From positions 3,844 through 67,843 of the forward strand of contig JAJCZQ010000048.1 in NCBI GenBank assembly GCA_029262335.1: a stretch of 64,000 bases of DNA, read 5' to 3'. Position 1 is the stretch's first letter. Each line of letters opens with the position of its first letter. The position numbers and the translations under genes are program-made. Below the pieces are notes generated by a model, which was given only the letters and a program-made list of their open reading frames with translations, was not told the origin of the DNA and searched no databases. This DNA is from Deltaproteobacteria bacterium (GTDB lineage Bacteria; Desulfobacterota_D; UBA1144; Nemesobacterales; JAJCZQ01). Below, piece after piece: positions 40,970-51,796 of this stretch.

Positions 40970-41689
40970 TTGGTTAAATTATTGAATAACAGCTATATAA
41001 AGATAGATACTCTTTCAAAATCCTTTGGCTTTAAAAAAGTATTAGACGGTATTAATTTACAGTTTGAAAAAGGTGATTTTGTAACTTTATTTGGCCCTAA
41101 CGGGGCCGGTAAAACTACGTTAATAAGAATATTATCTACTATTTTAAAAAGTGATGAAGGAAATATTACAATATCTGATTATGACATTAAAAAAAATGTG
41201 TCGGATATAAGAAAGATTATTGGCCTACTATCTCATGAAAATTTTCTTTATCAAAATCTTACAGTTACCGAAAATCTCATATTTTTTGCAAAGCTGTATA
41301 ACGTTAAAAATTCTGAAGAATCCATATCCTATAAACTCAATAAGATTGGTATATATTCAAAAAGAAATGAACTGATAAGAAATTTATCAAGTGGCATGAA
41401 ACAAAGGGTCTCTATTGTGAGATCTTTAGTGCATGATCCCGAAATAATATTTCTTGATGAACCATTTGTAGGATTGGACATTGAAGGGTCCGAATATCTC
41501 CTTGAATTGTTTAGCGAATTTAAAAAAGAAAATAAAACAGCTTTAGTTACAACACATGATCTTAGACTTGGGCTACATGAATGTACAAAAGTTGTTGTAA
41601 TAAATAAAGGACAGATAAGATTTAATGAAATTATTGAAAATGTAGATGTTAATAGTTTCGAATCTACATATAAATCTTTGATTGCCTGA
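40970..41689 (+). CDS. ccmA: Heme exporter ATP-binding protein CcmA
   Basis: TTG start (alternative TTG at 40982). Walker A GPNGAGKTT, signature LSSGMKQRVSIVR, Walker B IIFLDEPFVGLD. Located directly upstream of ccmB/ccmC. Confidence 0.75.
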   Translation: MVKLLNNSYIKIDTLSKSFGFKKVLDGINLQFEKGDFVTLFGPNGAGKTTLIRILSTILKSDEGNITISDYDIKKNVSDIRKIIGLLSHENFLYQNLTVTENLIFFAKLYNVKNSEESISYKLNKIGIYSKRNELIRNLSSGMKQRVSIVRSLVHDPEIIFLDEPFVGLDIEGSEYLLELFSEFKKENKTALVTTHDLRLGLHECTKVVVINKGQIRFNEIIENVDVNSFESTYKSLIA

Positions 41690-41765: not shown

Positions 41766-42437
41766 ATGAACACCCTTGCAGCCGTTCTCTGGAAAGATAT
41801 AATTAATGAACTTCGTACTAAAGAGATAGTCCTTTCTATGGCTGCATTCTCTGTAGTACTTGTTGTAATATTTAACTTCAGTCTTGTTATCAATAGAGAC
41901 AATATCGGACACCTTGTACCGTCGTTTCTCTGGATTTCAATTATTTTTGTCGGAACACTGGGGCTTAGCAGGACTTTTGCCATTGAAAAAGAAAACAGTG
42001 CAATAACGGGTATTTTAATCAGCCCTATCGACAGAAGTATGCTGTATTTTGCAAAAGTCCTTAGTAATTTGCTTTACGTGTTAATTGTGCAGTTTTTACT
42101 GCTGTTTTTATTTCTTTTTATGTTTAATATAAATTTGACCGGCAATATACTGATGCTGATTATTGTAATGGTATTGGGAGCTGTTGGATTTTCAACACTT
42201 GGTACACTTTTTTCAACAATGGCAATAAATACAAAGCTCAGAGAGCTTTTGCTTCCGGTAATACTTTTTCCTGTAATTATTCCGGTAATAATAAATGCGG
42301 TAAAAGCAACATCTTTAATATTCAGCGGCGGCGGGTATACGGAAATTAAACCATTTCTGAACATTTTAATAGCTTTTGATATCATATTTCTTGTAACATC
42401 AGCTCTGGTATATGAGTTTGTTGTAGAGGAGTCTTAA
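41766..42437 (+). CDS. ccmB: Heme exporter permease CcmB
   Basis: 223 aa. Six-TM ABC-2-type permease with CcmB-like conserved region (...SRTFAIEKENSAITGILISPIDRS...), placed between ccmA and ccmC. Confidence 0.8.
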   Translation: MNTLAAVLWKDIINELRTKEIVLSMAAFSVVLVVIFNFSLVINRDNIGHLVPSFLWISIIFVGTLGLSRTFAIEKENSAITGILISPIDRSMLYFAKVLSNLLYVLIVQFLLLFLFLFMFNINLTGNILMLIIVMVLGAVGFSTLGTLFSTMAINTKLRELLLPVILFPVIIPVIINAVKATSLIFSGGGYTEIKPFLNILIAFDIIFLVTSALVYEFVVEES

Positions 42438-42444
42438 AAGTTTT

Positions 42445-43107
42445 ATGAAACTATTATTTTATATAATTACTTTGATATTGATGCTCGTTTCTACATATGC
42501 AGCATTTATTTATGCCCCAACTGAAGTAATTATGGGACATATACAAAGGATATTCTATTTTCATATGGGGACGGTATGGGTAGCAACAATAGCTTTTATT
42601 ATTGTTTTTGTTGCTAGTATTTTATATCTGATCAATGGTAAAAGAAAGTGGGATGTGCTTGCATATACTTCTGCTGAATTAGGCGTTTTTTTTATAACAT
42701 TAACTATTATCACGGGAAGTATCTGGGCAAAACCCGTATGGGGTACATGGTGGACATGGGACCCTCAGCTAACTACTACATTTATACTCTGGATACTGTA
42801 TATTGTTTATCTGTTAATCAGGGCAAATTCTGGTTACGATGAAAAGAAAGCTAAATACTCAGCGGTATTTGCAATAATTGCTTTTATTGATCTTCCTCTT
42901 GTATATATATCTGCAAGGGTAATGAGGGGCATTTCTCCGGTAGTTTTCGGACCTGGTGGTGGTGGAATAGAACCAAAAATGTTAAATGCACTTTTAATAA
43001 CACTTGTTTCCTTTACATTACTATTTATTTTATTATTAGTCGAAAGAATAAAAATTGAGAATCTAAAGTATCAGATTAATAAACTAATATATACGGAGAA
43101 CAATTAG
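42445..43107 (+). CDS. ccmC: Heme exporter protein CcmC (heme handling protein with WWD domain)
   Basis: 220 aa. Trp-rich WWD motif WGTWWTWDPQLTT. The two conserved His residues needed for heme ligation were not individually located. Confidence 0.85.
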   Translation: MKLLFYIITLILMLVSTYAAFIYAPTEVIMGHIQRIFYFHMGTVWVATIAFIIVFVASILYLINGKRKWDVLAYTSAELGVFFITLTIITGSIWAKPVWGTWWTWDPQLTTTFILWILYIVYLLIRANSGYDEKKAKYSAVFAIIAFIDLPLVYISARVMRGISPVVFGPGGGGIEPKMLNALLITLVSFTLLFILLLVERIKIENLKYQINKLIYTENN

Positions 43108-43229
43108 TGGAATATCTATTCTGGGGACATGTATCAGTCTGGCTTTTTATTGCTGTATACGCCCTTTATTTAAAAAATACTTCAGACAATTTGAGCCGGA
43201 AACTAAAAGAACTAAATAACAAGGATTAA
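43107..43229 (+). CDS. ccmD: Putative heme exporter protein CcmD (small single-TM protein)
   Basis: This ORF is absent from the six-frame track. GTG overlaps the ccmC stop (TAGTG). 40 aa: (M)EYLFWGHVSVWLFIAVYALYLKNTSDNLSRKLKELNNKD, i.e. one TM helix plus a charged tail, in the position CcmD occupies between ccmC and ccmE. Confidence 0.5.
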   Translation: MEYLFWGHVSVWLFIAVYALYLKNTSDNLSRKLKELNNKD

Positions 43230-43238
43230 TATACAGAT

Positions 43239-43658
43239 ATGCTTAAGGGAAAATTAAAATTTATTATAGCTATTATTATAATTGCCGGAACCATTAGTTA
43301 CCTGGTATTTTCCGGAGTAAAAGACACGATGGTTTATTACCTGACTATCGACGAACTCCAGGCAAAAGTCCCGGAGGTTTACGGCGAAAGGGTAAGGGTT
43401 TCCGGTATTGTAGTTCCGGGGACTATAATAAAAGATAAAAACGGCAATATTGAATTCCGAATTACAGATGGTGAGAACAACATTGATGTAAAATACAGTG
43501 GTATTATTCCTGATATCTTTGCAGATGATGTTGAAGCAGTGGTTGAGGGAAATTATTCTCAACAGAATGTTTTTAATGCCGATGTACTCCTGGCCAAATG
43601 TCCTACTAAGTATGAGTCTGATGAGAAGTTGTATGAGTCGCATAAGGAAAGCAGTTAA
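43239..43658 (+). CDS. ccmE: Cytochrome c-type biogenesis heme chaperone CcmE, CxxxY variant
   Basis: 139 aa. N-terminal TM anchor, OB-fold core (RVSGIVVPGTI...FRITDGEN), heme-binding motif LLAKCPTKYES. Cys121 is encoded at 43599-43601; canonical CcmE has His-x3-Tyr at this position. Confidence 0.85.
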   Translation: MLKGKLKFIIAIIIIAGTISYLVFSGVKDTMVYYLTIDELQAKVPEVYGERVRVSGIVVPGTIIKDKNGNIEFRITDGENNIDVKYSGIIPDIFADDVEAVVEGNYSQQNVFNADVLLAKCPTKYESDEKLYESHKESS

Positions 43659-45652
43659 TGTATCAAATAGGTAATGTCTGTGTCTATTTTGCATTTTTCC
43701 TGTCACTCTATACCGTAGCAGCTTCTCTGATAGGTGCCAGATACAGGAACAGAGATTTAATAGAGAGCGGAAGAAATTCTGCTTTATCCATATTTATACT
43801 ATTAATTATAGTTTCAGCATCTTTGGTCTATGAGCTTATTAATACAAATTTTAATCTCAGATACGTTGCCTTAAATACAAGTACCGACCTTCCGACAATA
43901 TACAGGTTTACCGCATTATGGGCAGGGCAGGCAGGATCGCTTCTTTTATGGTGTCTAGTCCTTTCACTCTTTTCTTCTATAGTTGTAATGTTTTCAAATA
44001 AAAGGGACATTGATTATCAGCCATGGGTGGTTGTAGTTTTATATACAGTACTGGCATTTTTCCTATACCTGATAACATTTGTTGAAAATCCTTTTGATCT
44101 ATTACCATTTACACCAAACGAGGGCAGGGGCCTTAACCCAATACTTCAAAATGGCTACATGGCAATTCATCCTGTCACTTTGTATCTGGGTTATGTCGGC
44201 CTTACAATACCTTTTGCTTTTGGTATGGCCGCATTAATTAGCGGAAGATTAAATGATTCATGGATAAGACAATCAAGAAGGTGGACAATTCTTGCCTGGA
44301 CATTTCTTAGCGTCGGGCTTTTACTTGGTGCAAGATGGGCATATCTTGAACTTGGCTGGGGCGGTTATTGGGCATGGGACCCTGTTGAAAATGCAGCTTT
44401 TATGCCATGGCTTACAGCAACAGCATTCGTACATTCCGTGATGATCCAGGAAAGGAACGGTATGCTTCGCAAATGGAACATTATTTTACTTATAACCACA
44501 TTCTTCCTTACTTTACTTGGTACTTTTATTACACGTAGCGGCATAATTTCCTCTGTTCATTCATTTGCACAGTCAGATATTGGGCCATTATTCCTTGGAT
44601 TTATTGCCTTTGTATTAATTTTTTCATTTGGGATATTCCTTTACAGAATTAAAGAGCTTGAAAGTGAAGAAAATTTTGATTCAATTATATCGAGGGAAAG
44701 TGCATTTATTTTTAATAACCTGCTATTTCTCGGTGCAGCATTTGCTGTTTTTCTCGGAACTATATTCCCGATTATATCTGAAGCCGTTACTGGTGAGAAG
44801 ATACTTGTCGGCCCCCCATTCTTTAACAAGGTAAATGTTCCAATTGGGCTGGTCCTTATATTCCTTATGGGTGTAGGCCCGCTTATTTCATGGAGAAAAG
44901 CATCACCTGAAAATCTTAAAAAGAATTTTCTACTTCCCATGATAGTGGCAGTATGTGTAGGGATTGTGCTATTTATTTTAAATATAAGAGATATTACAGC
45001 GCTACTCAGCTTCTCATTATGCGGGTTTGTAGTTGCAACAATTGTCACTGAATTTTACAAAGGCGTTTCCGTACGTTCATCCAGGGGTGAGAATATTGTT
45101 GTATCGTTAACTACTATGATATCCCGAAATAAAAGGCGTTACGGCGGTTATATAGTCCATTTAGGGGTTGTCCTTATTGTTATAGGTATAACAGCATCAT
45201 CAACTTTTAATTCTGAAGTAGAAGCTACTTTAAATACAGGTGAATCTTTTAAAATCGGTGAATATGAATTAACTTTTGAAAAACTGGAAACCTATAAAAA
45301 CGATGCAAAAAATGGAACAAAAGCAGTACTGCTTCTCTCAGCCGGCGGCAGAACTATTGACACCGTATATCCTGAGAAAAATATATACAGGTACGAGGGC
45401 AACAGAGAAATAAACCAGGAAACAGAAGTATCTTTGAGGTCAACATATAAAGACGACCTTTATATAATACTCTCGAACGTAAACAGCAATACAAATGCAA
45501 CATTCAGGGCAATGATCAACCCAATGGTTAGCTGGATATGGGCAGGTGGTATAGTTGTTCTTTTTGGAGCATTGATTACCATGATGCCAAAGTTCGCTAA
45601 AAGAAGATCAAGCGTTACCGAAGAAATTGGTTTAAATGCTGAAAAAGCATAA
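43658..45652 (+). CDS. ccmF: Cytochrome c-type biogenesis protein CcmF (heme lyase component)
   Basis: 664 aa multi-TM protein. WWD-type Trp-rich motif WGGYWAWDPVEN. ATG overlaps the ccmE stop (TAATG). Confidence 0.9.
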   Translation: MYQIGNVCVYFAFFLSLYTVAASLIGARYRNRDLIESGRNSALSIFILLIIVSASLVYELINTNFNLRYVALNTSTDLPTIYRFTALWAGQAGSLLLWCLVLSLFSSIVVMFSNKRDIDYQPWVVVVLYTVLAFFLYLITFVENPFDLLPFTPNEGRGLNPILQNGYMAIHPVTLYLGYVGLTIPFAFGMAALISGRLNDSWIRQSRRWTILAWTFLSVGLLLGARWAYLELGWGGYWAWDPVENAAFMPWLTATAFVHSVMIQERNGMLRKWNIILLITTFFLTLLGTFITRSGIISSVHSFAQSDIGPLFLGFIAFVLIFSFGIFLYRIKELESEENFDSIISRESAFIFNNLLFLGAAFAVFLGTIFPIISEAVTGEKILVGPPFFNKVNVPIGLVLIFLMGVGPLISWRKASPENLKKNFLLPMIVAVCVGIVLFILNIRDITALLSFSLCGFVVATIVTEFYKGVSVRSSRGENIVVSLTTMISRNKRRYGGYIVHLGVVLIVIGITASSTFNSEVEATLNTGESFKIGEYELTFEKLETYKNDAKNGTKAVLLLSAGGRTIDTVYPEKNIYRYEGNREINQETEVSLRSTYKDDLYIILSNVNSNTNATFRAMINPMVSWIWAGGIVVLFGALITMMPKFAKRRSSVTEEIGLNAEKA

Positions 45653-45676: not shown

Positions 45677-46042
45677 ATGAATCTGATTGTAATAGTAGTA
45701 CTAATTTCAATATCAATCTCTATCTATATTTTATTCCCGATAATAAAGAAATATTTGATAAACACTGAAGTAGAGATTGATAATTCAGGCACAGACCCTG
45801 AATATAAAAATTTAATAAGAGAAAAAGACCAGCTCCTTAACGAAATAATGGATATAGACCTGGACTATGGATTAGAAAAACTCGGAGATAAAGATTATAA
45901 GGAATTAAGGCAGAAATACCGTTTAAAAGCCGCAGGGGTTATAAAGAAAATAGAAAATTATGAAAAGCTTCATAACACTGAAATTGATATGGTTCTAAGT
46001 AAAAAAATTGATGACGAGATTGAGAATTTAAAAAGAAAATAA
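45677..46042 (+). CDS. Small single-pass membrane protein with a cytoplasmic coiled-coil tail; the tail motif is shared with the next gene
   Basis: 121 aa. N-terminal TM (LIVIVVLISISISIYILFPII) followed by KK, so the tail is predicted cytoplasmic. The tail NLIREKDQLLNEIMDIDLDYGLEKLGDKDYKELRQKYRLKAAGVIKKIE aligns to the C-terminus of the 46061 gene. Confidence 0.5.
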   Translation: MNLIVIVVLISISISIYILFPIIKKYLINTEVEIDNSGTDPEYKNLIREKDQLLNEIMDIDLDYGLEKLGDKDYKELRQKYRLKAAGVIKKIENYEKLHNTEIDMVLSKKIDDEIENLKRK

Positions 46043-46060
46043 AAAAGTAAATCATTTTTC

Positions 46061-47476
46061 ATGTTAATACAAAAATATAATTCATATTTTATATGCCTTT
46101 TACTTTTATTCAGTTTGCTTAACGTCTTGCCGGCTTTTTCACAGACTGGCAGTGAACTGTTTATGGAAAACAGGTGTTCAAGGTGCCATACAATAGGAAG
46201 GGGGCGTTTTGTTGGGCCTGACCTTTATAATATTTCAAAAAAATACAATAAAGAACAGGTAAATGCCTGGATACTTAACCCGGATATAATTTACAGCCAG
46301 ACAAATAAAAAACCCTTTAATCCCGGATACCCTCCTATGCCTCAGCTTGGCATAACTGAACACAATGCCGAGCTTATAACAAACTTTCTTTTTAATAACA
46401 AAATACAGCAACAGAAAGAAAATGCCGGGGTAATTGAAGGTGTACTTGTTAATGAATCATCCGGTAAAGGTACAGAGGGTAATGATATTTATTTAAAATC
46501 CTTCATAGGGGACAGGCTGACTGATGAAAAACTTCAGATAACTGACGAAGAAGGAAAATTTAGATTTAAAGACTTAAGCTGGGTAAACAGTTATTCCATC
46601 AAGATTAAACATGAAGGGCTTGAGTATGAAACAGCTAAAATGGTATTCCCTCCCGACCAGGGTTCTATAGATTTAAAACTGCCGTTATTTGAAACGACCG
46701 ATAATGATTCAGAAATATTCCTAAATTTAAATCATCAAATTGTAAGTGTAGCTGAAAAGACCGTATCTATTGCAGAGATTTATGATTATGAAAACCGGGG
46801 TAATAGTATCTATATAGGCAAACCTGGTGATGACAATCTTAGACGTACATTAAAATTTTATGTTCCTGAAAATGCTATTAATCTAAAGTTTGTAGAAGGG
46901 CTTGATAATGATGAAATTCAAAGAGAGAAAACTACTGTTTATGATAGTTCAGGATTTCCGCCCGGAAGAAAAAGAGTCGTATTAACTTATGAAATCCCTC
47001 TTGAATTTGGAAAAAATCTTATAAATAAAGATGTACTAACTAATGTTTCTACGCTTCTTTTACTTGTTGATGACCAAAACGGGATGGTGGATGTCAGTAC
47101 TCTTAGTGAACTGGAACCGGTAACAATTGAAAATAAAAAATATAAAAGATGGTCCGGGAATAATTTAAAATCAGGCAGCAATTACGTTATTACAGTAACG
47201 AACAGGTCACTTTCCATAAAATATATTGATCTTTTCCCCGTTATTATCTTTGCTGTATTGTTTCTGTCCGTCTTTATCATTGGGCTTATTACACGTACTG
47301 AGAATAAAAATAATGTAAAGAACTTGCTGCTCAGGAGAGATGAAATAGTAAAGACAATAATCACTCTTGATGAAGAGTATAAGAAAAACTCTGTTAATGA
47401 ATCCACTTATAAAGAAAAAAGATATAGATTAAAAAATTCAATTATTGAAATTGATAAAAAGATAAACGAAGATTAA
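46061..47476 (+). CDS. Membrane-anchored monoheme cytochrome c fused to a transthyretin/CarboxypepD_reg-like beta-sandwich and a further periplasmic domain, with C-terminal TM plus conserved tail
   Basis: Signal peptide (cleavage AFS/QT). Class I cytochrome c domain with CSRCH (CxxCH) and a candidate Met ligand (PPMPQLG). GVIEGVLVNESSGKGTEGNDIYL...TDEEGKFRFKDLSWVNSYSIKI is a CarboxypepD_reg-like pattern. C-terminal TM (LFPVIIFAVLFLSVFIIGLI). Tail NLLLRRDEIVKTIITLDEEYKKNSVNESTYKEKRYRLKNSIIEIDKKI. Confidence 0.6.
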   Translation: MLIQKYNSYFICLLLLFSLLNVLPAFSQTGSELFMENRCSRCHTIGRGRFVGPDLYNISKKYNKEQVNAWILNPDIIYSQTNKKPFNPGYPPMPQLGITEHNAELITNFLFNNKIQQQKENAGVIEGVLVNESSGKGTEGNDIYLKSFIGDRLTDEKLQITDEEGKFRFKDLSWVNSYSIKIKHEGLEYETAKMVFPPDQGSIDLKLPLFETTDNDSEIFLNLNHQIVSVAEKTVSIAEIYDYENRGNSIYIGKPGDDNLRRTLKFYVPENAINLKFVEGLDNDEIQREKTTVYDSSGFPPGRKRVVLTYEIPLEFGKNLINKDVLTNVSTLLLLVDDQNGMVDVSTLSELEPVTIENKKYKRWSGNNLKSGSNYVITVTNRSLSIKYIDLFPVIIFAVLFLSVFIIGLITRTENKNNVKNLLLRRDEIVKTIITLDEEYKKNSVNESTYKEKRYRLKNSIIEIDKKINED

Positions 47477-48536: not shown

Positions 48537-50108
48537 TTATTTAATATTCAGTTTATCTGCGGATTTAAAATAGCTGATAATTGCAACGATTAACCCCTCA
48601 ACGGTATGTTTTCCTGCCTGTATATCCGCCCTAAATCCATTGTCTTTAATTGTCATTGAAGTTATTGGGCCAATAGAAGATATTATTGTGTTATTTAGGA
48701 GAGTTATATCATTTCCAAGCATCTTTTTAAGGTTGGTAAAAGTTGATGAACTGGTAAAAGTAATAAGATCAATATCACCTGATTTTAATTTGTGAATTAT
48801 ATCCTTTTTAACTGAAATTGAGGTAGGTGGTATTACTGTTTCATAACATTCTGCAACTGTTACTATGGCTTTTAACTCTTTAAGTGTTTCCGGAAGAATG
48901 TCTCGTGCGATTTTGGCTCTTGGTATTAATACGTTTTTGTTTTTTAAATTATGAGCTTTTAATGCTGTCAAAATACCTTCGGCAGTGTACTTTCGCGGGG
49001 TCAAGTCAGAATTAAGCCCATGCCTGGATAATTCTGCAGATGTTTTTTCACCTATGGTAATAATGGTTTTATTATTAAAAATCCTTGAATCATGTTTGTT
49101 TTTCTTAATTCTTTCAAAAAAGAATTTTACCCCGTTTACACTTGTAAATATGACATAATCATATTTTGAGAAGTTCTTTATTGAACTATCTACATTTTTC
49201 CAGGATTTAACCGGGACAGTTTTTATTGTTGGAAGCTCTATTACATTTGCTCCATAAGAATAAAGTGTGTCTCTTAGTCCAGTGGACTGTTCACTTGCCC
49301 TTGTAATTATTATGTTCTTGCCGAATAAAGGCTTTTTCTCAAACCAGTTGATGTTTTTTCTTAAATTAACAATTTCTCCAATAAGTATTACAGCAGGTGT
49401 TGTTATAGTTTTGTCCTTTTTTACCCTGTCTGCAATATCTGATAAATTCCCAACTACTGAATTCTGCGTTGGGAGGGTACCCCAGGATGTGATTATTACA
49501 GGTGTATCTGGGGGCATACTGTTTTTCATTAATTTTCTGGTAATCGATGAAAGGTTCTTTAACGACATTAGAAATACGAGAGTATCAAGTGAAGATATGG
49601 CTTTCCAGTTGATGCTGGATTTTATCTTGTCTGGATTTTCATGACCTGTGATTACTGCAAATGATGAGTTGTATTTGCGGTGAGTAAGTGGAACACCAGA
49701 ATAGCCGGGAACAGCACTGATGGAGCTGACACCCGGTACTATTTCTACTAATATCCCGGCTTTTGTAAGTGCTTCAGCTTCTTCACCCCCACGACCAAAC
49801 AGAAAAGGGTCTCCGCCTTTTAGCCTGATAACAACTCTGTTTCTTTTTGAACTGCTGATCAGAATGTCGTTTATTTCTTTTTGGGTAATTGATTTTTTAT
49901 TAGATTTTTTACCAACAAAAATAAGTTTTGTCTTCTTATTGCAATGATTAAGGAGCTTGGTATTTATTAATGAATCGTATACAACGACATCGGCTGTTTC
50001 CAAGAGGGCTTTGCCCTTTTCAGTTATTAACCCGGGATCACCAGGCCCGGCACCTACAAGATAAACCATTGTGTTCATATTAAATAAAATTGAAACCGAA
50101 CAGTGCAT
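48537..50108 (-). CDS. cobA: Bifunctional uroporphyrinogen-III C-methyltransferase / uroporphyrinogen-III synthase (CobA/HemD fusion)
   Basis: 523 aa. N-terminal SUMT domain (VYLVGAGPGDPGLITEKGKALLETADVVVYDSL...) and a C-terminal ~250-aa HemD-like domain. The true start may be the internal Met of MNTMVYLVGAG (~50078). Confidence 0.8.
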   Translation of the reverse strand: MHCSVSILFNMNTMVYLVGAGPGDPGLITEKGKALLETADVVVYDSLINTKLLNHCNKKTKLIFVGKKSNKKSITQKEINDILISSSKRNRVVIRLKGGDPFLFGRGGEEAEALTKAGILVEIVPGVSSISAVPGYSGVPLTHRKYNSSFAVITGHENPDKIKSSINWKAISSLDTLVFLMSLKNLSSITRKLMKNSMPPDTPVIITSWGTLPTQNSVVGNLSDIADRVKKDKTITTPAVILIGEIVNLRKNINWFEKKPLFGKNIIITRASEQSTGLRDTLYSYGANVIELPTIKTVPVKSWKNVDSSIKNFSKYDYVIFTSVNGVKFFFERIKKNKHDSRIFNNKTIITIGEKTSAELSRHGLNSDLTPRKYTAEGILTALKAHNLKNKNVLIPRAKIARDILPETLKELKAIVTVAECYETVIPPTSISVKKDIIHKLKSGDIDLITFTSSSTFTNLKKMLGNDITLLNNTIISSIGPITSMTIKDNGFRADIQAGKHTVEGLIVAIISYFKSADKLNIK

Positions 50109-50263: not shown

Positions 50264-50830
50264 ATGCATACAGAAAGTGATCATGAACTTGCTCTAAGGG
50301 CGAAGTCCGGAGACGAAAGTGCGTTTAACGAATTAATGAGGAGGCATTATAAGGGAATTCTGAATTTCGTTTACAAATTTACTTATAAAGCTGATTTATG
50401 CGAAGACCTTACGCAGGAAGTATTTTTGAGAGTGTATAAATCTATTCATACATACGAACCGCAGGCAAAATTTTCAACCTGGTTGTACAAGATAGCAACA
50501 AACTTATGTCTTACACATTTGAAAAAGAAAAATTTAAATATTAGTCTGGATGAGATAAGGGAAAACATCGGTGAACTTGAAGACGTAAAGAGCGAGGATG
50601 CCCATAATCTAATGCAGAGAAAAGAGTTGAACGACAGGGTTATGAAAGCAATCAGTACTCTTCCTGAAAAAGAAAGACTCGCAATTACACTTTGTAAATA
50701 TCAGGGACTTTCATACCTCGAAGTATCAGAAGCTCTGGAATGCAGTGTCGGAGCAGTTAAAACACATATATTCAGGGGAAGGTCCAAACTGATAGATATC
50801 CTTAAACCACATATAGACGAGATAAATTAA
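50264..50830 (+). CDS. ECF-type RNA polymerase sigma factor (sigma-70 family)
   Basis: 188 aa. Region 2 (FNELMRRHYKGILNFVYKFT...AEDLTQEVFLRVYKSIHTYEP...FSTWLYKIATNLC) and region 4 HTH (LPEKERLAITLCKYQGLSYLEVSEALECSVGAVKTHIFRGRSKL). Confidence 0.85.
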   Translation: MHTESDHELALRAKSGDESAFNELMRRHYKGILNFVYKFTYKADLCEDLTQEVFLRVYKSIHTYEPQAKFSTWLYKIATNLCLTHLKKKNLNISLDEIRENIGELEDVKSEDAHNLMQRKELNDRVMKAISTLPEKERLAITLCKYQGLSYLEVSEALECSVGAVKTHIFRGRSKLIDILKPHIDEIN

Positions 50831-50831
50831 A

Positions 50832-51302
50832 ATGATTGATGAAAAAACATATCAGGAAATAGAAGATTATTTTTCAGGAGAACTTAACGAAGAAGAGAGT
50901 AAAAGCCTTTTGTTAAAAGTTAAGGAATCTGAAGAACTCAGGGTTCATTTCGAGGAATCGGAAAAACTATGGGACTATATGTCTTCGCTGGAGACTATTG
51001 AGCCCGGCCCTGATTATATCCAAAAATTCTGGAAAGCTGTTTCGGAAGATGAAGAAAAGAAAAACAGATCATTCTTCAATTTTAATTTTATGAACAAAAA
51101 GTGGGCCTTTGTTTCTTCACTTGCAGTATTATTATTGCTGAGCACAATAATAATTAATAACTTCGTAGTTGATGAAGAAAAGAGCGGTTACGTGTATGAT
51201 GCTGATGATGAATTGCTTGTAAATAATCTTGATGAAGCGTTAAGTAAAAATAGTCCTGAAGGGCTGAATGTGTATGGCCCCTGGGACGATCTTGAAAATT
51301 AA
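50832..51302 (+). CDS. Putative anti-sigma factor (single-pass membrane protein co-transcribed with the ECF sigma)
   Basis: 156 aa. Its start follows the sigma-gene stop by 1 nt. Acidic N-terminal region, one TM (WAFVSSLAVLLLLSTIIINNF), short C-terminal domain. No zinc-finger HxxxCxxC motif is seen, so the assignment rests on position and topology. Confidence 0.45.
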   Translation: MIDEKTYQEIEDYFSGELNEEESKSLLLKVKESEELRVHFEESEKLWDYMSSLETIEPGPDYIQKFWKAVSEDEEKKNRSFFNFNFMNKKWAFVSSLAVLLLLSTIIINNFVVDEEKSGYVYDADDELLVNNLDEALSKNSPEGLNVYGPWDDLEN

Positions 51303-51304
51303 TA

Positions 51305-51796
51305 TTGGGAGATTTAGTGTTGAAATATAACAGAATATTCACTTTAATATTTTTAATTACTCTTTTATTCACAAGTTCCGTGTTCGCTGGCAAAAACAAT
51401 GAAAAAAAACTTTGGTGGAGAAACGGACAGGTTGTTGAAGAACTGGAGCTGACTCCCGCACAGGTTAAGAGTATAGAATCTATTTTTCAAAGGTATAAGG
51501 GTGAAATAAAATATTTCAATAAAGAACTTAACAAAAAGGAAAACAAACTCCAGAAACTTATTCAAAATCCAGATTCAACAAGAGAAGATGTTCTTAAAAC
51601 AACTGATGAAATAAATATACTGAAAGCTGACGGGCATAAACTTAAGGTGAATATGTTTTGGGAAATAAGGGAATTACTGACTCCCAAGCAAAGAACCCAG
51701 CTTCGTTTAATAAAAGAAAGATATATGAAAGGAAAACCTAAGAATATCCTGTATTTCCCTGAAGACTGCATTTCAAATGATTATAAGTATTATTAA
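51305..51796 (+). CDS. Periplasmic LTXXQ-motif protein (Spy/CpxP-like envelope-stress chaperone family)
   Basis: Signal peptide (KYNRIFTLIFLITLLFTSSVFAG). Two LTxxQ motifs (LTPAQVKSI; LTPKQRTQL). The start could instead be GTG 51317 or TTG 51320. Confidence 0.6.
   Translation: MGDLVLKYNRIFTLIFLITLLFTSSVFAGKNNEKKLWWRNGQVVEELELTPAQVKSIESIFQRYKGEIKYFNKELNKKENKLQKLIQNPDSTREDVLKTTDEINILKADGHKLKVNMFWEIRELLTPKQRTQLRLIKERYMKGKPKNILYFPEDCISNDYKYY

Follow-up and report, generated by a model that had tools for sequence, protein, structure and literature searches.

What do the two genes directly behind ccmF contribute to a cytochrome maturation (Ccm) operon that carries neither ccmH nor ccmG? This question was raised by a stretch of DNA of 64,000 nucleotides (the window), in which a sequence-only reading had noticed two such genes, here called gene A and gene B, with similar tails. 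System I* of Desulfovibrio and archaea (Allen 2006 and Goddard 2010, as summarised in PMC3601427 and PMC9084895) is distinguished by a Cys-type CcmE and often by the lack of CcmH and CcmG, and CcmI enhances maturation without being required, according to the account in PMC3601427. The same account describes the Desulfovibrio system as working without CcmH or CcmG, and archaea are reported to need only CcmABCEF. System I has been under study for decades; as presented in these two sources, open points include the delivery of apocytochromes to CcmF, the release of haem from thioether-linked CcmE, and what, if anything, stands in for CcmH and CcmI.

Operon layout and gene neighbourhood

The operon starts with ccmA (40970..41689, + strand), encoding an ABC ATPase (Pfam ABC_tran, 2e-31), whose position in the operon is kept in related loci. 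It continues on the same strand with ccmB (41766..42437, +; Pfam CcmB, 1.2e-24) and ccmC (42445..43107, +; Pfam Cytochrom_C_asm, 1.6e-32). A 40-aa membrane ORF with a GTG start (43107..43229, +) overlaps the ccmC stop by 1 nt. No Pfam match was obtained for it; it appears to be CcmD-like, to judge from its position and its 'LFWGH..W' membrane helix, which match CcmD-like protein ends in loci L001, L084 and L099. The following ccmE (43239..43658, +; Pfam CcmE, 2.5e-29) is of the Cys type, with CPTKY as its CxxxY motif, as in System I*, and ccmF (43658..45652, +) encodes the haem lyase (Pfam CcmF_C, 5.4e-69, and Cytochrom_C_asm, 7.8e-40; TIGR00353, 7.6e-142). The two ORFs announced behind it proved to be real, correctly placed and co-directional: gene A (45677..46042, +) encodes a CcmI-N-terminal-like protein of 121 aa and gene B (46061..47476, +) a membrane-anchored periplasmic protein of 471 aa. 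They begin 24 nt and 18 nt, respectively, after the preceding stop codon, and no terminator-like site was found on the + strand from ccmF to the end of gene B. A CobA-HemD fusion gene (tetrapyrrole synthesis) is located one gene beyond the ccm operon on the downstream side.

Neither a CcmH nor a thioredoxin-like gene was found in the 64-kb window or in 83 related loci searched together with up to 10 kb of flanking sequence; an operon neighbourhood free of ccmH and ccmG recalls System I*, some organisms of which have neither gene. The host lineage, a delta-proteobacteria-related phylum, also agrees with System I*. The beta-sandwich and hairpin proteins encoded by genes A and B, however, are foreign to System I* as published, namely CcmABC(D)EF with or without CcmH and CcmI.

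Among the 80 Dadabacteria GTDB species loci that matched best, nearly all those with a contig of sufficient extent have the order ccmABC(D)EF-A-B, with a median A-to-B spacing of 10.5 nt; the pair thus adjoins ccmF in relatives of the window as well. The suggested co-occurrence with CxxxY-type CcmE was also upheld, since the neighbouring CcmE was of the Cys type in 91 of 91 cases (72/72 in Dadabacteria and 19/19 in other loci), and all 72 Dadabacteria CcmE found carry CPTKY.

Outside Dadabacteria, a metagenome scan with a narrow gene A alignment sampled one further clade, in which ccm neighbours surrounded the gene A homologue in 79 of 80 loci. Wherever contigs of this clade were long enough, the order was always ccmE-ccmF-ccmH-A-B-ccmA-B-C, the pair being cytochrome-free and placed after ccmH in at least 70 metagenome loci; one locus of the ccmH-A-B type comes from the Chloroflexota genome GCA_016210585.1. 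Gene A lies directly upstream of ccmABC in candidate division KSB1, the orders A-B-ccmE and A-B-ccmE-ccmF-ccmH-A'-ccmABC were seen in loci L101 and L099, respectively, and the pair occurs together with ccmG in L087. The place behind ccmF had been regarded as that of ccmG or ccmH. It is better described as the ccmI slot: the pair follows ccmH in other clades and so does not replace CcmH, and absence of CcmH, with which the pair coexists there, cannot serve as its hallmark.

Natural fusions of the two genes were also met. In proteins P0378 and P0306, both encoded next to ccmH or ccmG, an A module leads through a second membrane helix into a periplasmic region like that of gene B, after which come a third membrane helix and a tail. 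The gene B profile matches the two with E values of 4e-37 and 4e-40, and neither has a cytochrome domain. Neighbourhoods in at least three lineages, together with these fusions, strongly back the earlier suggestion that the pair represents uncharacterised maturation accessories.

Anatomy and relationship of the two proteins

In the AF2 model, gene A is composed of helices at residues 2-29, 41-65, 71-99 and 105-120, arranged as an N-out membrane helix, a cytoplasmic hairpin and a short C-terminal helix. The membrane helix, recognisable in the sequence (residues about 2-24; 45680..45748, +) and contained in the first AF2 helix, ends around Pro21, which is invariant in one family alignment and conserved at 90% or more in another. 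The KK behind it puts the C-terminal part on the cytoplasmic side. The hairpin module (residues 41-99, 'DIDLDYGLEKLGDKDYKELRQKY'; 45797..45973, +) was modelled with a pLDDT of about 90. Of the description of gene A as a single-pass membrane protein with a coiled-coil tail, the membrane helix is therefore retained, but the coiled coil gives way to a helix-turn-helix hairpin. Nor can gene A be counted as a periplasmic protein, its model comprising a membrane helix, a cytoplasmic body and essentially no periplasmic part.

A word-indexed homologue search with gene A alone retrieved close relatives only, and a family alignment was needed for wider reach. The resulting family profile matches 7125 clusters at E<=1e-3 among 1.84 billion representatives. 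In most gene A relatives the C-terminus is a zinc ribbon on the cytoplasmic side (Pfam Zn_Ribbon_1, up to 7e-15), which gene A of the window lacks; zinc ribbons were also the only matches of P0369 in a tblastn search against plasmids. With gene A and its family profile as queries, nothing was found above threshold in Pfam, NCBIfam or PDB sequences, the last of these yielding only coiled-coil noise (E>0.1).

Gene B begins with a signal peptide and a class I cytochrome c domain, continues with three beta-sandwiches and ends in a membrane helix and a hairpin; more than 150 homologues were found and its AF2 model has a pLDDT of 84.6. The cytochrome c domain (residues 28-112; 46142..46396, +; Pfam PF00034) scores 35.4 bits over residues 28-110 against a cut-off of 21.3, and AF2 gives a helical fold at residues 30-112. 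It contains CSRCH as predicted haem attachment site (residues 39-43; 46175-46189, +) and, within PPMP, Met93 (46337-46339, +). Since C39, C42, H43 and M93 do not vary among 23 homologues, the proposal of a class I cytochrome c with a candidate Met ligand in PPMP was well founded. Of 80 Dadabacteria copies of gene B, 79 retain CxxCH, and the domain was seen in Dadabacteria loci only; among the loci examined it is present where the operon has no ccmH and absent where ccmH is present.

CcmH is a periplasmic three-helix bundle with an LRCxxC motif. A homology of the CxxCH region with CcmH was considered and rejected: Pfam and the fold indicate cytochrome c, a His follows the CxxC, and gene B does not match CcmH (PF03918). 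No CxxC other than the haem-type CxxCH occurs in gene A or gene B.

Between residues 121 and 381, gene B is all-beta in the AF2 model. A putative transthyretin-like / CarboxypepD_reg domain (PF13620; residues 121-213; 46421..46699, +) is followed by further beta-sandwich domains (residues 219-381; 46715..47203, +), the transthyretin or prealbumin-type fold being a seven-stranded beta-sandwich. The C-terminal membrane helix (residues about 388-410; 47222..47290, +) was identified from the sequence and from the start of an AF2 helix at residue 388. This helix, 388-441, covers the membrane span and the first hairpin arm; a turn and a helix at 447-470 follow. The cytoplasmic tail (residues about 417-470; 47309..47470, +) was recognised by hhalign against the gene A module as a second copy of the hairpin. 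The statement that this architecture belongs to no described family has held, neither protein being covered by any Pfam or NCBIfam family in profile searches.

The hairpins of gene A and gene B are related. The two tails align in BLASTP with 30.4 bits (E 1e-5), and hhalign of the family profiles, membrane helices excluded, gave a probability of 94.6% and an E value of 6.5e-8 over 52 ungapped columns, by which the likeness noticed earlier over about 45 residues is confirmed. K, E, D and L abound in both tails, which produce weak Pfam coiled-coil matches such as APG6_N and CdvA, so that an artefact of charged coiled-coil composition between two unrelated neighbours had to be weighed. Such an artefact is exceedingly improbable. 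Column shuffles that keep the composition scored 9.4 +/- 2.0 and in 0 of 150 cases reached the observed 36.8, which rules out composition as the source of the likeness. Moreover, the alignment runs without a gap, the turn falls at the same place in both hairpins (hhalign and AF2), the tail HMMs match genes A and B alone among 334 window ORFs, and the fusion proteins contain both copies of the hairpin. Some Dadabacteria gene B proteins have no tail, and in some of these cases gene A is missing too. The hairpin is thus dispensable in one Dadabacteria subgroup, in which the cytochrome, the beta-sandwiches and the membrane helix are retained and the zinc ribbon is absent.

Resemblance to CcmI and to other modules

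CcmI crosses the membrane with two helices and has a leucine-zipper-like loop in the cytoplasm and a TPR domain in the periplasm, the latter chaperoning apocytochromes within the CcmFHI complex (PMC3884852, PMC7676999). Nine annotated CcmI proteins were taken as reference. Aligned with these by hhalign, gene A gave a probability of 93% and an E value of 3e-7 over 70 columns in register. Much of this score stems from the membrane helix, but the observed 43.3 was reached in 0 of 150 alignments in which the loop columns had been shuffled (33.4 +/- 2.0). The gene A hairpin taken separately scored 16.4 against the CcmI loop (null 8.2 +/- 1.9) and the gene B tail 25.5 (probability 75%, E 2.5e-5; null 8.6 +/- 2.1). 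In the reverse direction, the highest-ranking matches of an HMM of the nine CcmI N-termini among 9360 ORFs were proteins of gene B and gene A, the best being a gene B membrane helix with its tail (E 5.4e-6). TIGR03142, the CcmI N-terminus, was the recurring best NCBIfam match other than zinc ribbons (best E 3.7e-6), relatives scoring 15.7-27.2 bits against a curated cut-off of 29.3; at E<=1, it matched neither gene A nor gene B of the window.

Several further features are shared with CcmI. The pair is encoded at the end of a ccmF(-ccmH) block, as is CcmI/CycH in Rhodobacter capsulatus and rhizobia, a position that suggests an accessory role for the haem lyase CcmF. In each case the first membrane helix is N-out and terminates in a conserved Pro, and the cytoplasmic helical segment after it shows the pattern 'L..E(L/I).(R/F)D...G.(I/L)S..(E/D)...(R/L)'. 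The N-terminal half of P0378 and P0306 displays the topology of CcmI, with a first membrane helix, a cytoplasmic loop and a second membrane helix before the periplasmic domain. Differences are equally clear. The periplasmic domain of gene B consists of three beta-sandwiches instead of TPR plus alpha/beta, and no TPR family was found in gene A or gene B with Pfam and NCBIfam; TPR relatives of CcmI/CycH are the C-terminal half of E. coli CcmH and NrfG. Unlike CcmI, the pair is split over two genes, gene A being devoid of the second membrane helix, which occurs only in the fusions. The connectivity of gene B is reversed relative to CcmI, with an extra hairpin copy after its C-terminal membrane helix. 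A zinc ribbon on the cytoplasmic side is an addition of many gene A relatives, the CcmE that accompanies the pair is of the Cys and not of the His type, and the TIGR03142 scores stay under the cut-off.

The hairpin also resembles SHOCT (PF09851) and GvpG (PF05120), which weakly matched 4 of 33 modules (best E 2.8e-5) and 17 of 33 modules (best E 0.0022), respectively; the P0306 tail, for instance, matched SHOCT with E 0.0023 and 18.1 bits, under the 27-bit cut-off, as were all matches for which these Pfam cut-offs were compared. In SHOCT, GvpG and the hairpin alike, some 30 residues make up two amphipathic helices that meet at a conserved Gly with an acidic residue after it, and the location is frequently C-terminal and frequently behind a membrane helix. 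The hairpin module is longer, however, with about 52 conserved columns that include the preceding helix, and the gene B tail of the window lacks the SHOCT-type Gly (KKNSV). These weak matches suggest that the hairpin may be a common building block and not specific to CcmI. The function of SHOCT is not known, and a test of its oligomerisation was negative (PMC3581485).

Fold matches of the periplasmic part of gene B (OST1, pilins and aminopeptidase N-domains) were uninformative about cytochromes. OST1, or ribophorin I, has a comparable layout of tandem non-cytoplasmic beta-sandwiches, one membrane helix and a cytoplasmic helical tail. As an accessory subunit of the eukaryotic oligosaccharyltransferase, it probably presents substrates to a catalytic subunit embedded in the membrane, and a role of this kind is proposed below for gene B. 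With about 10% identity, no sequence similarity, a TM-score of 0.26 and a large rmsd, and belonging to another pathway and another domain of life, OST1 is a structural analogue only, offering a lead on mechanism and not a family assignment.

Proposed function and alternative readings

Taken together, these results of comparative genomics suggest that genes A and B are probably two subunits of the System I* Ccm machinery that form a split, non-TPR counterpart of CcmI and do its job. Gene A would correspond to the first membrane helix and cytoplasmic loop of CcmI, and gene B would supply a periplasmic domain of three beta-sandwiches in place of the TPR repeats, held in the membrane by its C-terminal helix and continued by the second cytoplasmic hairpin. 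The two membrane helix-hairpin units may pack on each other, on the cytoplasmic face of CcmF, or both, which would tether the beta-sandwich array near the haem-attachment site of CcmF, where it could hold or present unfolded apocytochromes as the TPR domain of CcmI does. A common cytoplasmic or membrane partner, to which the shared tail pointed in the sequence-only reading, may exist. In Dadabacteria, the cytochrome domain of gene B may act as a redox partner for haem handling by CcmE and CcmF.

A more far-reaching version of this proposal, which we regard as possible though doubtful, is that the pair is a dedicated apocytochrome-handling core module of System I*, with the Dadabacteria cytochrome domain as a redox centre of the haem lyase that compensates for the missing CcmH. 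Electrons might pass, for example, from the cytochrome c domain of gene B to haem held by CcmE or CcmF, and such a transfer may be needed to break the Cys-haem thioether of CcmE. If true, this would make the pair an unrecognised core component that explains how System I* proceeds without a TPR-type CcmI.

Gene B could instead be a membrane-anchored respiratory electron carrier serving an oxidase or reductase, with gene A as its small partner or assembly factor, and its place beside the ccm genes could reflect its being a major substrate of the Ccm system. A normal class I domain above the Pfam cut-off with invariant haem ligands, its retention in 79 of 80 Dadabacteria copies, the public annotation as 'c-type cytochrome', and the subgroup in which cytochrome, beta-sandwiches and membrane helix persist without gene A and the tail all agree with this explanation. 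It is nevertheless unlikely: what the family conserves at its core are the beta-sandwich array, the membrane helix and the tail, and not the cytochrome. In the metagenome clade, CxxCH is found in 0 of 38 full-length gene B homologues, although these lie inside ccm operons between ccmH and ccmA; the fusion proteins have no cytochrome domain either, and in KSB1 gene A alone is linked to ccm genes. For the same reason, most gene B homologues being without a cytochrome domain (present in 0/38), the idea of a dedicated Ccm substrate put forward in the sequence-only reading is unlikely. Substitution of the pair for the thiol-redox components CcmH and CcmG, missing from the operon, is very unlikely. 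The absence of CcmH and thioredoxin-like genes from the window and the 83 related loci would fit it, as would the cytochrome domain being confined, among the loci examined, to operons without ccmH. However, the sole CxxC in either protein is the haem-type CxxCH, and the core pair coexists in cytochrome-free form with ccmH in at least 70 loci, and with ccmG in L087, and thus does not stand in for CcmH. Compensation would be conceivable only through the added cytochrome domain, and haem cannot directly reduce disulfides. System I* of Desulfovibrio, besides, functions without either component in the description of PMC3601427.

A regulatory or signalling device, in which gene A (membrane helix and, in most relatives, zinc ribbon) and gene B (periplasmic sensor) relay the periplasmic state of haem or apocytochromes to the cytoplasm, for example to gene expression, haem synthesis or the ATPase activity of CcmA, is in our judgement quite improbable. 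Such a device would account for the zinc ribbons of most gene A relatives (up to 7e-15), for the frequent position of gene A directly before ccmA, for the CobA-HemD fusion gene downstream of the operon and for a single weak anti-sigma NCBIfam match on P0378 (E 0.065). The zinc ribbon is, however, missing from gene A of the window and from the whole tail-less gene B subgroup, and no DNA-binding or sigma-binding domain was detected. A tight, fixed place in a structural operon and a CcmI-like N-terminus better fit a subunit. An anti-sigma factor in particular was rejected, the topology being opposite to that of classical anti-sigma factors and the match at E 0.065 being the only one.

Whatever their precise role, two unnamed proteins have a fixed place in the System I* operons of Dadabacteria, the Chloroflexota-containing clade and KSB1 at the least. 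If the haem-type gene B of Dadabacteria is functional in maturation, it would provide the first cytochrome c domain inside the maturation machinery. The pair now constitutes a defined family, which annotation pipelines currently label 'hypothetical' or 'zinc ribbon protein'; the public names of its proteins are 'hypothetical', 'zinc ribbon domain-containing protein' and 'c-type cytochrome'.

Two genes at the end of the ccm operon

In the window, ccmA (40970-41689), ccmB (41766-42437), ccmC (42445-43107), a CcmD-like 40-codon ORF (43107-43229), ccmE (43239-43658), ccmF (43658-45652), gene A (45677-46042, 121 aa) and gene B (46061-47476, 471 aa) formed one compact plus-strand operon, and the next gene was a convergent one of rsmE type, encoding a methyltransferase. 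Spacing was 24 nt from ccmF to gene A and 18 nt from gene A to gene B, and no terminator-like site was found between the three genes. The CcmE motif, CPTKY, was of the Cys type (CxxxY) that marks 'System I*', a variant of cytochrome c maturation (Ccm) System I (PMC3601427). Genes A and B represent two protein families for which no name was found in the databases searched; a full-text literature search linking CcmF, CcmH and zinc ribbons likewise returned no paper.

The AlphaFold2 model of gene A comprised a membrane helix (residues 2-29) joined by a disordered linker to a confidently modelled helix-turn-helix hairpin (helices 41-65 and 71-99, turn 66-70; pLDDT about 90), with a short helix at the C-terminus. 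In gene B, a signal peptide preceded a cytochrome c domain of class I, which scored 35.4 bits with Pfam PF00034 (cut-off 21.3) and in which C39, C42, H43 and M93 were invariant among 23 homologues; at the C-terminal end, the membrane helix ran on as a long helix to residue 441, followed by a turn and a helix at 447-470. All elements listed for the two genes by the sequence-only reading were present. Gene A is a single-pass membrane protein as that reading proposed, but not a periplasmic one, since the lysines following its membrane helix put its body in the cytoplasm.

The two proteins showed similarity by BLASTP (E 1e-5). Tail profiles restricted to the cytoplasmic parts, built on 67 gene A and 36 gene B sequences of related loci, aligned over 52 ungapped columns with a hhalign probability of 94.6% (E 6.5e-8). 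Their score of 36.8 compared with 9.4 +/- 2.0 after column shuffling, which destroys order and keeps composition, and was reached by none of 150 shuffles, excluding a compositional artefact. Among the 334 ORFs of the window, module HMMs matched genes A and B only. The shared tail noticed earlier is real. In P0394, a 635-aa protein from a JGI metagenome, a large extracytoplasmic domain without relation to gene B was followed by one membrane helix and by three tandem copies of this cytoplasmic hairpin, so the module has been put to use outside the Ccm context as well.

Distribution and ccm context of the pair

The closest relatives of the window were metagenome-assembled genomes (MAGs) carrying the label Candidatus Dadabacteria or Thermodesulfobacteriota. 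When one genome per GTDB species was scanned, 144 gene B relatives came up; the best 80 of these 144 were examined, and all came from Dadabacteria-type MAGs. The order ccmABC(D)EF-A-B was found in nearly all of these loci with sufficient contig reach, CPTKY in 72 of 72 CcmE genes and the cytochrome domain in 79 of the 80 gene B copies. Three sub-groups were distinguished, with gene A and a tailed gene B (the window type), with gene A and a tail-less gene B, or, in a marine group, with neither gene A nor tail, so that the hairpin is dispensable in some lineages. Genes A and B were set apart by 300-1900 bp, through a Gp49/HTH_37 toxin-antitoxin pair or other insertions, in locus L002 (7229-7928) and 14 loci of the tail-less sub-group. 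These insertions were confined to the sub-group whose gene B lost its tail; in loci with both hairpins the genes were nearly always abutting or overlapping.

Beyond this lineage, the gene A profile matched 7125 clusters among 1.84 billion representative proteins at E<=1e-3, of which 1530 reached E<=1e-10. These relatives were mostly 95-250 aa long, many ending in a cytoplasmic zinc ribbon, and their sampled informative contexts were ccm loci every time: A-ccmA-ccmB-ccmC followed by a CcmD-like gene and a thioredoxin in KSB1, ccmE-ccmF-ccmH-A-B'-ccmA-B-C-D in a Chloroflexota MAG, ccmF-ccmH-A-B' in locus L098, and also loci L099 and L101. Gene B homologues that correspond to its residues about 121-470 and lack the cytochrome domain are called B' here (hhalign E 6e-39 and 5e-36); that domain was seen only in Dadabacteria loci. 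A metagenome scan seeded with Chloroflexota-type gene A, sampling one clade, gave ccm neighbours at 79 of 80 loci, with the order ccmE-ccmF-ccmH-A-B'-ccmA-B-C on long-enough contigs and a Cys-type CcmE in 15 of 15 cases. Among 38 full-length B' proteins of this clade, none contained CxxCH and 31 carried the tail. Two gene A paralogues occurred in metagenome locus L099 (159-1724 and 5458-5988), the former upstream of ccmE and paired with a tail-less gene B-like gene, the latter between ccmH and ccmA.

Gene fusions are classical evidence for joint function of separate proteins. Two natural A-B' fusions were found, P0378 with 493 aa and P0306 with 686 aa, suggesting that A and B work together. 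Each begins with an A module, which in P0306 includes a zinc ribbon, and continues through a second membrane helix and the periplasmic B' region to a third membrane helix and the tail. Their matches to the gene B profile had E values of 4e-37 and 4e-40, and their genes lie directly 3' of ccmH or ccmG.

Likeness to CcmI and possible roles

CcmI of R. capsulatus combines a membrane segment (two helices with a cytoplasmic leucine-zipper-like loop) with a periplasmic TPR segment and, in the CcmFHI complex, delivers apocytochrome c to the haem lyase as its chaperone (PMC3884852, PMC7676999). A CcmI of System I* is reported to enhance maturation but not to be essential (PMC3601427). Besides zinc ribbons, the only recurring match in curated libraries was NCBIfam TIGR03142, the CcmI N-terminal domain, always below cut-off (best 27.2 against 29.3 bits, E 3.7e-6). 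Nine annotated ccmI genes were compared, taken from alpha- and beta-proteobacterial plasmids and from one record with the label Dysgonomonadaceae (Bacteroidota); their N-termini read as a first membrane helix, 'RDQL.E(L/I).RD...G.IS..EA.AAR.EI.RR.L' and a second membrane helix. Membrane helix plus module of gene A aligned with them in register over 70 columns (hhalign 93%, E 3e-7), scoring 43.3 against 33.4 +/- 2.0 (maximum 40.6) when loop columns were shuffled and the membrane helix kept. Against the CcmI loop, the gene B tail alone scored 25.5 (shuffled 8.6 +/- 2.1) and the gene A module alone 16.4 (shuffled 8.2 +/- 1.9). Among 9360 ORFs of the window and Dadabacteria loci, gene B and gene A proteins were the top matches of an HMM of the nine CcmI N-termini, with E 5.4e-6 and 1.4e-4 for the gene B membrane helix and tail. 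The second half of the module also matched, weakly, Pfam SHOCT (4/33, best E 2.8e-5) and GvpG (17/33, best E 0.0022), short two-helix motifs of unknown function (PMC3581485). In our reading of these profiles, the module is probably related to the cytoplasmic loop of CcmI, with a sub-cut-off TIGR03142 match, and would also belong to a broader class of SHOCT-like hairpins, for which reason it was not filed as a CcmI family member.

The ccm context in at least three lineages and the natural fusions lend good support to one of the two proposals of the sequence-only reading, that A and B are maturation accessories. From comparative genomics and structure prediction, they are proposed to form a split, non-TPR counterpart of CcmI, given their CcmI operon position, the CcmI-like membrane helix and loop, and the CcmI topology reproduced by P0378 and P0306; the pair differs from CcmI in being divided into two genes and in its non-TPR periplasmic part. 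Hairpins and membrane helices would anchor A and B to one another, to CcmF or to both, leaving the beta-sandwich array of gene B to handle apocytochrome close to the active site of CcmF. Such a CcmI-like mechanism is plausible, and we consider it somewhat favoured. The best fold analogue of gene B was OST1/ribophorin I, an oligosaccharyltransferase subunit of the same general layout, by analogy only; its accessory role is similar to that proposed for gene B.

Other explanations were weighed. No ccmH was seen in the window or in the searched flanks of Dadabacteria loci, but the pair coexists with ccmH in 70 or more other loci, which contradicts replacement of CcmH or CcmG. Cytochrome-free homologues inside ccm operons weaken the case that gene B is just a respiratory cytochrome or a Ccm substrate. 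For the cytochrome domain itself there are two readings: it may take part in maturation, e.g. through redox handling of haem bound to CcmE or CcmF, or it may be a respiratory carrier that gene fusion joined to the anchor. A regulatory role of the pair retains some likelihood given the zinc ribbon of gene A relatives, but no regulator domain was detected.

Neighbouring genes

In many relatives, the ccmD-position gene encoded a CcmD-like membrane helix preceded by an extracytoplasmic, lipoprotein-like extension at the N-terminus (80-160 aa; L001 4361-4975, L084 11826-12320, L099 8102-8485); the ORF of the window (43107-43229) is the minimal 40-aa form. An insertion of ~2.2 kb separated ccmC from ccmE in many Dadabacteria loci (e.g. 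L012 1691-3998). One gene past the ccm operon, 48537-50108 (minus strand) encoded a 523-aa protein in which uroporphyrinogen-III C-methyltransferase (TP_methylase) is fused to HemD (HEM4), possibly part of a sirohaem-dependent haem route. It was placed likewise in L001 and L003, so that a tetrapyrrole-synthesis gene is kept next to a haem-attachment operon. Just past it (50264-51796, plus strand), three genes look like an envelope-stress module, coding for an ECF-type sigma factor, a putative anti-sigma factor that spans the membrane once and a Spy/CpxP-like secreted protein; no relation to the A-B pair was seen.
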